Source: Candidatus Heimdallarchaeum endolithica
GTDB taxonomy: Archaea > Asgardarchaeota > Heimdallarchaeia > Heimdallarchaeales > Heimdallarchaeaceae
Assembly (NCBI GenBank): GCA_021513715.1
Contig: CP084167.1
Location: 160,001-224,000, forward strand
Reading direction: 5' to 3'
DNA: 64,000 nt
In this document: positions 33,063-39,075 of the stretch, in pieces
Layout: every line of letters begins with the position of its first letter
How positions within the stretch are numbered: the first letter of the stretch is position 1
The notes under the pieces: model-generated
Seen by the model: the letters and a program-made list of their open reading frames with translations, nothing else
What the model was told of the DNA's origin: nothing
Databases searched by the model: none
Made by a program: the position numbers and the translations under genes

Positions 33063-33588
33063 TAAGCTCCGAGTTATATGGAAAAATATAAAGGTATCTT
33101 TATAAAAAACGATTAATATTAATCAAAAAACTTTGAATTCTTTTCAAACTCCTTTAAAACCCATATTCCTTCTCATAGAATAAAATAAAATATGAGAATG
33201 ACTGCAGAAACACCTAACAAGCAAAAACCTAATATTAAACCTACTATTCTATTCTTTAAGTGCCTTTTTATTAAATCCCCAATGAACCCTCCAATAGGTA
33301 AAAAAATTGATAACACAATAAACAAATACAAATCAAAATGACCTTGTACTACGTGAGTTGTACCTCCTACAACAGCTTTAACTAAAATAATAAAAAGAGA
33401 AGTACCAGAAGCTACAATAGGAGTATATCCAAAACCTAATATCATCAATGGAGAAATAAGCCATCCTCCAGAAGAACCAAGAAGGCCAGTAATAAAACCA
33501 ATTAATAATCCAAAAACTACAATAACGGGAATACTTATTCTAAACTCATAGTCATCCCTTTTTATAGTTATAAAAGGTTTCAACCATG

Positions 33589-33963
33589 AGTTGAAATTTT
33601 ACGTAATTTCTTCAGGACTCTACCCAACCAATCAACAAACTTAGCGAAAGTTGTGAAGACTGGATTAAGAGAACATGAAAGACACAGTCTTAATTAAGTT
33701 CTCTAAGGGGTTCATCTCCTTATCCCGGGCACTCATAACTCCCAAAGGGAAGACCGGGTGTCGTAGGAATGAAACCTACGTCTTTAAGCATATAGCTCAA
33801 GACACTAGATAAATGAGAATTAAATATATAAAGATAGCTGAAAAGTTGTGACACTCCCTAATATCTTGTATGTATTCTTTATTTTTGCAAATGTGTTTCA
33901 GGTTGTTATTGGTATGATAACTCCACAAACTAAAAATTTAGTTTATTATGTAAAAAAGTATCT
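33589..33963. mobile_element. Non-autonomous insertion (MITE-like or intron-like) with CATG direct repeats and sub-terminal inverted repeats
   Basis: CATG at 33585-33588 and 33964-33967; both ends read AG-N6-TTTTACRTAAT inward; in-frame restoration of host gene. Confidence 0.75.
33600..33806 (-). ncRNA. Putative ~200-nt structured RNA inside the insertion
   Basis: Minus-strand TTTATATA ~27 nt upstream; locally raised GC; stems GTGTC/GACAC, GAGC/GCTT, GTAGG/CCTAC, CCCGG/CCGGG, interleaved AGAGAAC/GTTCTCT and AAGACTG/CAGTCTT. Confidence 0.6.
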
Positions 33964-34534
33964 CATGGATAATGAAACCTTGCAAAAAAAGCTATCTTAT
34001 GTCTATGCTCTTCTTGTTCTTTTCTTACTTGTTTCAATTCGTGAATTTTATCTCTTCTATATGTTTCGATACCTAGTTTCTTCTTTTTTCTTGATTCAAA
34101 TAACATTTTAACGCTTAGTAATAGAGCTAATGAGAACAATATTGAAAGTAAAACTACTTCAGGTATCATATCTGTAATTAAAGCTCCCAAAAAAGTAGAA
34201 ATCATAGCAGGAATTAAAAAAGCAAAGGCAAATTTAAAATCAATTTCCTTCCTTTTTCTTGCTCCAAGCACACCAACCAGAGAAATAAAAACTGTAGAAG
34301 ATAAAGTTGTTCCTACAACAGTAGGCATTTCATATTCAAATAATACTGCTAAGATAGGAACAATGAATACTCCCCCACCAAGTCCAGCTATTACGCTTAA
34401 TATGCCAACAACAAGTGCAATTATCGAAATCAAGAATAGTATAGTGGGAGACAATAGCATAACTCTTGATGATAAAAACATATTTATAAAACTTTTTCGA
34501 ATTAAAAACCTAAAAGAAGTTAGAAATTAAATTT

Positions 34535-35494
34535 TTATTTTTTTATGTTATTTCTTAAATAAAGTAAATGGCTTCTTAACGTTGCAGGGCTGACTTTACA
34601 TGTTCGCGCTAGAAAAGCTTGATTAAATAAACTAATATTGATTTTTTCAGCAATCATTTCTGATGCTAAAAAAATACATGCTACACTTAGGACACTAGGT
34701 CGTCTGCTTTTAGCATCTATTTTAGAAAGTTTAACTGCAAATAGCTCTATTGATGTTAAAATTTTATCAATATCTAGTTCAGTAATCTCTAGAGTGTTTC
34801 CGACATTTTGTAACTCTTGCCTAATTTGCCCCCTAATTGATAAATCAGATCTTAAGGTTGCCATATGTTTTGTTACCCAAACACTTGTAGATGACTTAGT
34901 ATAAGTTAAATTATTTGTGATAATATAATCTCGAACTGCTTTGGAGCTAATCTTACAGCCATAGCTTTTAAAAATATCAACTACAGTACGAATACTTACT
35001 GGAATATTTAGATTTTTTGAAAATATTATTGCTAAAGCCGATGCTAGCAAAAAAATGTTTGAAACCTTATTTCCTGCTCTTTTTTCTGCTTCGTATCTCT
35101 TTCTTAATTCATACATTATTTGGTTTTTTTGATTTGATGAAAAACCTAATTTTGTTAAAATGTTTAATAATCTTGATTTATTCTCTTCTATTGCATCATA
35201 TTCCAATTTTTTTTCAGCAAACCACATTCTCTGAAATTGTGCTCTACTTTCTCCTGGAGATACTTCAAAAGATGAAAAATAAGTATTTTTACTTCTTCTA
35301 CTTTCTGGGCTGCCAAAACGATTTTTTCTCCAATCAGTTGAATCACTATCAATAAAATGATCTGAACTATACCTTTGGTCAATAACAAGACCACATTTTC
35401 TACAAACAACATCTGAAACTGTTTCAATAAAATTACTTCCCCCACACTCAGGACACACAATTTTAACCTTTTTCTCTTGCTCTGTTCTCATCAT
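34535..35494 (-). CDS. Divergent TFIIB/TFB-like protein
   Basis: CPECG...VCRKCGLVID Zn ribbon, DWR...RFGSP reader-like segment, two cyclin-like repeats (RRPSVLSVACIFLA). Confidence 0.78.
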   Translation of the reverse strand: MMRTEQEKKVKIVCPECGGSNFIETVSDVVCRKCGLVIDQRYSSDHFIDSDSTDWRKNRFGSPESRRSKNTYFSSFEVSPGESRAQFQRMWFAEKKLEYDAIEENKSRLLNILTKLGFSSNQKNQIMYELRKRYEAEKRAGNKVSNIFLLASALAIIFSKNLNIPVSIRTVVDIFKSYGCKISSKAVRDYIITNNLTYTKSSTSVWVTKHMATLRSDLSIRGQIRQELQNVGNTLEITELDIDKILTSIELFAVKLSKIDAKSRRPSVLSVACIFLASEMIAEKINISLFNQAFLARTCKVSPATLRSHLLYLRNNIKK

Positions 35495-37332: not shown

Positions 37333-39075
37333 CTATTTTTCTAAAACACTAGAATCTACATATCCATACTCAACCAATTTAGCTAATACTTTATGAACAG
37401 ATTCTTCTATTGTTTCTTTATCAGTTTCGCAAACAATTTCAGGATTAGTTGGAGGTTCATAAGGATCATTGACTCCAGTGAAATTTAGTATTTCACCTGC
37501 TTTTGCTTTCTTGTATAATCCTTTTACATCTCTAGATTCACATACTTCTATGGGAGCTTTCACATATACTTCCATAAAGTCTCCTATCAGTTGTCTTATC
37601 TCATCTCTTACTGCTTGATAAGGGGCGATATTAGCCATCAAAACAATAACGTTATTACGAGTTAGCATATGAGCAACAAAACCAACTCTTCTGATATTTT
37701 CATCTCTATCATGTTTACTGAAACCTAAATCTTTGGTTAGATATTGTCTTACAACATCCCCATCAAGACGTTCTACATGATATCCTCTTTTCTTTAATTC
37801 TTGAGCAAGAGCTTTAGTTATTGTTGTTTTTCCAGACCCGCTAAGTCCAGTGAATAGTAGAGTAACACCTTTCTGTTCTACTTTTACTTTACCATTATAA
37901 GCATCAGTTAAAATCATAGCTACTTCAGGACGAGTAAACTCTCTAGGAAGCATTTGTCCTTCTTTTAACATTTGTCTAACCTTTGTTCCTGAAAGATAGA
38001 CATGACTCTCTTTTCCATGAGGACAAGTCTTTTGAGTAGCCATTTGCTCACATATTTTACAATAAAAAGCATGCTCAAATTTAAATGGTTTAATCTTTAG
38101 ATCATTATCACTGAATTGATCAAAAATCTCTTGGGCTTCATAAGTACCATAATAATTACCAACACCAGCATGGTCACGACCTATAATAATATGAGAACAA
38201 CCATAGTTTTGCCTAGCTATAGCATGCATGATAGCCTCTCTTGGACCTGCATAACGCATGTTTGCTGGAAATACACCTAAAAAGAATCTGTCTTTTGGAT
38301 AATATGCATTTAGAATCACTTTGTAAGTTTCCATTCTAGTTTGAACTGGAACATCATCACTTTTTGTTGAACCAACAAGAGGATTAATAAATAAACCATC
38401 TACAGACTCTAAAGCTACTTTTTGTAGATATTCATGAGCTCTGTGTATTGGATTTCTTGTTTGGAAAGCCACAACTGTTTTCCACCCTCTTTTGGTAAAT
38501 TCAGCCCTAGTTTGTTTTGGGGTGAAACGATATTCAACAAAATCTTTATGAGGAAGATCATCGATTAACAGAATTTCTCCTCCTAGGTAATAGCTTTCTG
38601 TTTGATAAAGAGCAGCTACTCCTGGATGAGCACTATCCTCTGTTTTATAAACATTAAGTGCTTCTTTCTTTTTATTTGGATTATAAATGTCAGAAACTGT
38701 CATTAAACCCATATATACGCCATTCCACTTTAGTGTAATTTCATCTCCTTTACTTAAACTTCCAGCAAAAGAATCATCAACTGGAAGAGTTACTGGAATT
38801 GGCCAAACAACTCCATTTTTTAATCGCATTGTTTCAACAACGCTAATATAGTCTTCTTCAGTCATAAATCCAGTTAGAGGTGAATAAACCCCTGTAGCTA
38901 TGCATTCAAGATCAGCTAGTGTTCTTTCATTTAATTCTAAGACAGGTAATGTTTTTGCTTTTTCAACATAATTATATCTTTCTTCTTCGCTTATTATATG
39001 TTTGTCTATAAGTTTTCCTCCATGGGGAGGAACAAGCTTTTGAAGGTTTTTTTCTAATTCTTTATTGTCACTCAT
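37333..39075 (-). CDS. sat-cysC: Bifunctional sulfate adenylyltransferase / APS kinase (PAPS synthase)
   Basis: [16 protein letters not shown]; [22 protein letters not shown]. Confidence 0.95.

Follow-up and report, generated by a model that had tools for sequence, protein, structure and literature searches.

The insertion that splits a tauE/safE gene in the window (the whole 64,000-nucleotide stretch of the Candidatus Heimdallarchaeum endolithica genome analysed here) is a protein-less mobile element, and we consider it likely that this element is a non-autonomous, tnpB-less "ghost" derivative of the tnpB elements of Heimdallarchaeaceae, which inserts at C-AT and carries a TnpB omegaRNA scaffold. 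This element moves, is present in many copies and has AT at its junctions; its RNA is homologous to the one encoded at tnpB 3' ends, with covariation of the structure, and a TATA box stands at a fixed distance from it. By sequence comparison, this RNA is the scaffold of a TnpB omegaRNA (reRNA) and not a tRNA mimic or a ribozyme.

A protein-less element in tauE

The source genome is a single contig of 3.33 Mb with 31% GC; its sole congener within the genome collection is Ca. Heimdallarchaeum aukensis, and both organisms were described in PMC8813620. The ORFs that flank the element are two halves of one TauE/SafE protein:

33586..33966, minus strand: protein-less mobile element, whole, 381 bp from AT to AT, one AT being the repeated target or core
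33967..34481, minus strand: tauE/safE (TSUP), 5' part, interrupted, Pfam PF01925 positions 3-114
33173..33585, minus strand: tauE/safE (TSUP), 3' part, interrupted, Pfam PF01925 positions 122-235
33945..33955, minus strand: left subterminal inverted repeat, consensus TTTTACGTAA, with one change in the window copy, 9 nt inside the AT
33597..33607, minus strand: right subterminal inverted repeat ATTACGTAAAA, within the predicted transcript

In-silico deletion of 33966-33586, with one AT kept, restores a 309-aa TauE, and the orthologous gene is uninterrupted in the congener. For insertions found in the congener, the matching empty sites of the source genome carry a single AT. Since AT is found at both junctions and only once in empty sites, the element repeats AT; this repeat is either a 2-bp duplication or a recombination core, two outcomes that look alike here. 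The inverted repeat, of 10-11 bp and located ~9 nt inward of each element end, shares its core with the ends of the local elements that encode 483-aa TnpBs.

With the RNA model, 18 full-length copies and seven fragments were found in the element's own genome and 11 matches in the congener; BLAST with the region returned 14 additional near-full copies of 92-98% identity, along with divergent and truncated ones. The copies occupy interrupted ORFs in both orientations, and the element is an active mutagen in the source genome, with tauE and several other ORFs split. As to the surroundings of the interrupted gene, a gene for a TFIIB-like zinc-ribbon protein (window 34535-35494) lies immediately upstream of tauE, and sat/cysC (window 37333-39075) is near it, which may place the split tauE in a region for sulfur assimilation.

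The RNA and its homology to tnpB 3' ends

The original prediction placed in this insertion a separately transcribed functional RNA with its own TATA box, and every motif that it listed is present at its place, namely, the TATA box TTTATATA at 33832-33825, GTGTC at 33805 and all of the stems. The RNA is real, structured and probably expressed; covariation, the TATA box at fixed spacing and the better conservation of the RNA than of the spacer all speak for such a transcript. The proposed span of 33600-33835 holds in part, inasmuch as the RNA extends further, up to the boundary of the element at 33586, and would continue from there into the flank. Its features are:

33825..33832, minus strand: archaeal TATA box TTTATATA, kept in copies with an only 34-61% identical upstream spacer
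33780..33804, minus strand: hairpin H1, homologous to the final tnpB codons (VLSQWLQT in parents, VLSYMLKD here)
33763..33779, minus strand: hairpin H2 ("T-like arm"), 5 of 5 pairs double-changed, 98.7% of cells paired
33724..33758, minus strand: hairpin H3, with bulged AUGAGU (33736-33731) as the pseudoknot 5' strand, from the homologue alignment
33708..33720, minus strand: K-turn-like strand with bulge, AGGA-GAU-GA-ACCC, at the closure of the large domain, pattern kept in three RNA families
33668..33704, minus strand: helix H5 with apical AAGAC-UGU-GUCUU hairpin, double changes in 6 of 7 and 3 of 5 pairs
33628..33663, minus strand: helix H6, apical part variable, double changes in 4 of 6 pairs
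33614..33625, minus strand: K-turn-like partner strand GGGUA-GA-G-UCCU, from pattern comparison of three RNA families
33586..33591, minus strand: terminal ACUCAU, pseudoknot 3' strand and scaffold end, taking in the repeated AT, from pairing counts

Transcription would start at about G33803 (range 33806-33802). The TATA box precedes TGTC by 20 nt in the window copy, a spacing shared by 11 of 11 related tnpB-less cassettes; the cassettes are related to one another and do not count as 11 independent events. The claim of an own TATA box gains from this common spacing. In divergent copies, the RNA is 79-96% identical as against 34-87% for the upstream spacer, and the TATA box is retained where the spacer drops to 34-61% and the RNA holds at 79-88%. 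The tnpB-less cassettes of the 492-aa type that are found in relatives join the RNA to the parental left end and tnpB promoter; the parents use this TATA box to drive tnpB, and there it stands at an equal distance from the TG that opens a short tnpB leader. A second protein-less family, of ~357 bp, bears the RNA of the 445-aa TnpB; its copies lie at TCAT sites (genome 396404-396760, 699973-700328, 2204200-2204556, 2657960-2658316, 2845702-2846058 and 238535-238876). Cassettes of RNA without tnpB thus arose at least three times.

Folding of the 220-nt region beats shuffled sequences with a z of -2.47 on the minus strand and -2.52 on the plus strand, values so alike that the strand is not given by folding alone. 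For covariation, 31 sequences were aligned by fitting them to a covariance model, because the 5' half came out misaligned between lineages with plain MAFFT; the resulting pair counts, which lean to the model, show 96.2% of the cells paired and double changes in 36 of 56 pairs, mostly from one split between two lineages. None of 500 shuffles reaches the observed level, and slid controls pair in 35-51% of cells. In particular, H2, H5 and H6 are almost entirely rewritten among homologues with pairing kept. Of the stems originally proposed, GTAGG/CCTAC, CCCGG/CCGGG, AGAGAAC/GTTCTCT and GAGC/GCTT are upheld by the homologues. The H-type pseudoknot of AAGACTG with CAGTCTT is not supported, since local partners are available to AAGAC as well as to CAGTC: only 52 of 129 cells pair in homologues, and 6 of 12 own-family copies have A-C at one pair. 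The AACTT/AAGTT hairpin likewise falls away, lying in a variable loop region.

The pseudoknot that does emerge joins the AUGAGU bulged from H3 to the terminal ACUCAU, with 72 of 72 and 111 of 114 cells paired and all six pairs formed. It has changed in a compensatory manner twice independently, from ATGAGT/ACTCAT to ATGATT/AATCAT in the 483-aa family and to ATAAGT/ACTTAT in locus L115. A pseudoknot with the scaffold 3' end is a conserved hallmark of TnpB RNAs (10.1101/2023.11.20.567912; PMC10711439). Elsewhere in the scaffold, a GAU bulge followed by GA, opposite GA-G, recurs in three RNA families, the partner strand having one extra G. The K-turn consensus comprises a canonical stem, a 3-nt bulge ending in U, and tandem G-A and A-G pairs, and by this consensus we take GAUGA/AGAG to be a K-turn-like motif. 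The K-turn originally suggested at TGATTG...CTGA, a different place, is not supported, since CTGA is CTCA or CTCG in homologues. The source genome encodes L7Ae; a literature search yielded no description of a K-turn in an omegaRNA.

The affiliation of the RNA follows from a covariance model, R1, built exclusively from protein-less copies. In 300 kb of fetched loci, R1 has 30 matches, one of which is a copy of the family itself; the remaining ones are tnpB 3' ends on the coding strand or other tnpB-less cassettes. Specifically, loci of the 492-aa type from other Heimdallarchaeaceae score 28-56 bits (E 4e-6 to 1e-14) and the local RNAs of the 483-aa type 20-30 bits (E 6e-7 to 8e-4), with no match in the 445-aa TnpB family or in the Thorarchaeota loci searched. 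In other Heimdallarchaeaceae, the 3' end of the 492-aa tnpB and the DNA that follows it are colinear with the RNA from its first motif to its last, and H1 is best read as a relic of the last TnpB codons. The matches at tnpB 3' ends, together with the covariation of most stems, lead us to view the RNA as a TnpB omegaRNA scaffold, and the "guide scaffold" option of the original prediction is the one that fits. Other traits point the same way: the RNA is located at the right end, overlapping or adjoining the tnpB 3' end in homologues; an internal loop pairs with the scaffold 3' end; and sequence conservation ends at ACTCAT, beyond which there are 22 different flanks. The statement that no known family could be assigned is true of Rfam, insofar as no Rfam 15 model matches and searches of the region at gathering and E-value thresholds gave nothing relevant, but not of the RNA as such, given its homology to TnpB omegaRNAs.

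The source genome contains 25 matches to TnpB domains, most of them in tnpB-only elements of 1.5-1.9 kb that likewise have CAT-ended inverted repeats. In 12 ORFs the pattern of this TnpB clade, D, E six residues before the zinc finger, and D, is kept, that is, the alternative-glutamate arrangement of PMC10711439 with DLG replacing DPG. Separately, among the Thorarchaeota-type loci (L197:1-3754, L199:476-3748, L213:1-3722 and L221:1-3764, all minus, and ~20 more), about half have a 550-610-aa TnpB homologue head to head with a large gene, the product of which (>1200 aa) has no Pfam match, shows a PD-(D/E)XK-like motif by eye and was not found in the source genome; the pair may represent a domesticated partnership of TnpB or else a large element.

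Target motif, presumed guide and mobilisation

The site of insertion and the presumed guide are:

33965..33968, minus strand: target motif CCAT, of which the AT also belongs to the element; consensus VCAT, a predicted TAM from flank counts
33566..33585, minus strand: putative guide, host flank starting GGUUGAAAC, different in every copy; guide role by TnpB analogy

The base that precedes the left AT is C at 21 of 24 sites, and T stands before CAT at 1 of 21 sites compared with a genome background of 35% (p=0.0014); in the 445-aa family, TCAT is found at 8 of 9 sites. The elements' own right ends read TCAT in the family considered here and TGAT in the 445-aa family, so that each differs from the respective left-flank motif, which fits a TAM that spares the filled site. 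Insertion at (C/G/A)CAT predicts a 5'-VCAT TAM combined with a flank-derived guide, and the flank bias suggests that VCAT is the TAM of TnpB; it could also be explained by a preference of the transposase. When the guides were compared with other genome sites adjoining CAT, there was no match at up to 2 mismatches in 16 nt, which would make the empty allele the natural target. A 10-nt match of the H2 loop to the left flank of the window copy, AGGTTTCATT, is taken as chance because copies with unrelated flanks have the identical loop.

The following sequence of events can be envisaged. Transcription from ~33803 would cross the right end and enter the host flank, the AUGAGU:ACUCAU pseudoknot would close the scaffold, and the next 16-20 nt would serve as the guide. 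Supplied from another locus of the genome, a TnpB would load the RNA and cut an empty allele that offers a VCAT TAM and a match to the flank, whereupon repair from the filled chromosome copy would restore or spread the element. Its movement would be due to a transposase or recombinase provided in trans, and, as the weakest step, the K-turn-like motif would probably bind the host L7Ae. TnpB biology (10.1101/2023.03.14.532601) is the model here for transcription across the right end, a guide taken from the flank, cleavage of the empty allele and its repair.

Among the enzymes examined, no mover of the element was found. All three Cas1 loci sit in CRISPR operons, the one Y1 element of the genome is an ordinary IS605-like one with different ends, the single tyrosine integrase is located in another element, and the multicopy DDE families (IS5-like of 325 aa, IS481-like of 314 aa, one of 233 aa and ISH3-like of 387 aa) have other ends. 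These DDE insertion sequences, exemplified by genome 208348-209376, 701726-702761, 780102-780871 and 3304291-3305541, have ~35, 27, 13 and 6-8 matches, respectively; one variant of the local IS481-like ends reads TGTTCACTCA, a motif reported beside aCas1-linked TnpBs (PMC10691335). The neighbours of 72 tnpB loci include no recurring transposase. Two stand-alone small serine recombinases (genome 316731-317450 and 405384-406091; L235, L236) occur in 28 of 30 Heimdallarchaeaceae genomes, were not found in other families of the class and score below the IS607 cut-off. These host enzymes are candidates for a mover in trans, with no link found; in particular, none of 25 loci of serine-recombinase homologues has tnpB or such ends alongside.

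Several unusual copies were noted on the way. L154:1779-1990 and L148 show an inversion of the 3' part, bounded by the internal ATGAGT and the terminal ACTCAT, and several copies are 5'-truncated exactly at the internal CATG (genome 1184271 and 1375285; L109, L110), both of which suggest that the mover also recombines internal AT sites. Near 1465-1523 of L263, a 56-bp element consisting only of the left and right ends is flanked by CATG sites; it offers transposition assays a natural minimal substrate. In L018 (congener 2602747), a tnpB element of the 445-aa type is inserted in a copy of the element at the ATG of the pseudoknot strand.

Alternative readings and known systems

The first alternative to be weighed is that the RNA is by now an orphan, with the element spreading as a MITE via its ends alone, the omegaRNA as a passenger, and the cognate TnpB lost from the genome. 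Indeed, the TnpB of the 492-aa type, the cognate of the closest RNA, was not found in the source genome, where the best match has 46% identity, and no tnpB-bearing parent closer than the 492-aa type turned up in 83 genomes, a metagenome scan and four further contigs. With this type missing, and with the 483-aa RNAs having a different pseudoknot pair, loading in trans by a local TnpB is something that we infer. Moreover, relatives contain deletion derivatives that lack the RNA (L252, L263), mobility requires an end with which the RNA overlaps in its right part, and many copies are so young (92-98% identical) that conservation among them tells little. Against this, divergent copies retain the RNA and the TATA box while the spacer is lost, the derivatives that were amplified, in at least three lineages, consist of the promoter and the entire RNA, and the flank bias agrees with a TAM. 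On balance, we regard the orphan status of the RNA as doubtful.

Far less probable, in our opinion, is that the RNA guides or assists its own insertion in the manner of a bridge or seek RNA, or acts as a decoy that binds TnpB to dampen it. The subterminal inverted repeats with a dinucleotide core do recall IS1111, a protein mover was not found, and the internal ATGAGT is the junction sequence on the other strand, and L154 shows an inversion between it and the terminal ACTCAT. However, an IS110/IS1111 bridge RNA is rejected, as neither of the IS110 domains, PF01548 and PF02371, was found in the single-contig genome; the pseudoknot accounts for ATGAGT; there is no target-matching loop that varies with the insertion site; and the homology is to the tnpB 3' RNA.

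A tRNA mimic, a ribozyme or a self-splicing intron is hardly credible: the window copy does have a 5-bp stem with a 7-nt loop and a possible 5-bp closure, but this acceptor-like GTGTC/GACAC closure has a pair probability of ~0.01 here, pairs in 43 of 94 cells in tnpB-type homologues and lacks support because TGTCTT pairs with AAAGAC within one long hairpin, so that no conserved acceptor stem closes D and T arms as in a tRNA, tmRNA or Y RNA; ARAGORN finds nothing in the region; Rfam is negative for ribozymes, including group I or II cores of an intron or IStron, and the RNA is homologous to that of tnpB 3' ends; and copies lie in both orientations, and an intron could not mend the long ORFs that antisense copies interrupt.

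The ghost reading of the element is best appreciated by comparison with ghost Spu-1, the elements that belong to Spizellomyces Fanzor1 (Saito et al. 2023, PMC10432273). Both are bounded by inverted repeats, have lost the nuclease ORF and kept an omegaRNA at the right end; in both, conserved bases outside the left end (CA there, C here) form, together with the junction dinucleotide, the TAM, which is a predicted one here; and for neither has a transposase with those repeats been found. The element of Heimdallarchaeum is multicopy, and its ends resemble those of nuclease-bearing elements in the same genome. The RNA scaffolds of ghost Spu-1 function with the nuclease supplied in trans (PMC10432273). 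Whereas ghost Spu-1 comes from a eukaryote, with Fanzor1, a 75-nt scaffold, 30-nt repeats and a CATA TAM, the present element comes from an archaeon, has a 220-nt multi-helix scaffold with a pseudoknot and a K-turn-like motif, an AT junction and a TATA box, and is known from its sequence alone.

Other TnpB-associated elements are similar in part. The omegaRNA-encoding PATEs of IS200/IS605 (Meers et al. 2023, 10.1101/2023.03.14.532601) are likewise protein-less, often encode an omegaRNA and rely on TnpB and TnpA in trans; their ends, though, are asymmetric subterminal hairpins for a Y1 transposase and they insert after the TAM without a repeated core, as opposed to the inverted-repeat pair, AT at both junctions and single AT in empty sites seen here, so that membership in this group is rejected. 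Elements of IS607 with tnpB (ISXfa1, the C. botulinum IStron; PMC10711439, 10.1101/2023.11.20.567912) share with the present element a matching dinucleotide at the two ends that is single in the empty site, the use of junction bases in the scaffold (seen in eukaryotic elements too), a pseudoknot with the scaffold 3' end, and partner TnpBs (here, candidate partners) whose alternative glutamate precedes the zinc finger by six residues. Their core, however, is GG and not AT, inverted repeats are described as missing there, and here no serine TnpA is tied to the ends and there is no intron; with inverted repeats present and TnpA not found, assignment of the element to IS607 is not established. Pro-Fanzors differ in the RuvC-I motif, which is DPG there and DLG here. 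Finally, the DDE- and aCas1-associated TnpB branches (Altae-Tran et al. 2023, PMC10691335) include, with Asgard examples, solo tnpB between inverted repeats and mobilisation in trans, but aCas1 was not found here, the four local DDE families have other ends, and the motif GTTCACTCA of that study matches local IS481-like ends and not this element. A literature search found no paper on the elements described here.

The supposed new RNA class is thereby removed, the RNA being an archaeal variant of the known ghost elements. What is gained is a worked omegaRNA model that no Rfam 15 model matches, with helices, pseudoknot, start site, guide boundary and a predicted VCAT TAM, which suffices for direct tests of these Asgard TnpBs. 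A K-turn in an omegaRNA, if true, would tie OMEGA systems to the host L7Ae. A more far-reaching scenario, which we deem unlikely, is an Asgard system of the Fanzor-ghost kind, in which many cassettes with a promoter and no nuclease would constitute a genome-wide guide repertoire for TnpBs acting in trans, the scaffold would be assembled through the K-turn with host L7Ae, giving the OMEGA complex a snoRNP-like component, and the entire AT-core family would be moved by a host-encoded or novel recombinase rather than by a described TnpA. Guide cassettes of the inverted-repeat ghost type have previously been described for eukaryotic Fanzor, and the same arrangement, with several origins in a lineage close to eukaryotes, bears on the adaptation of TnpB to inverted-repeat transposons.
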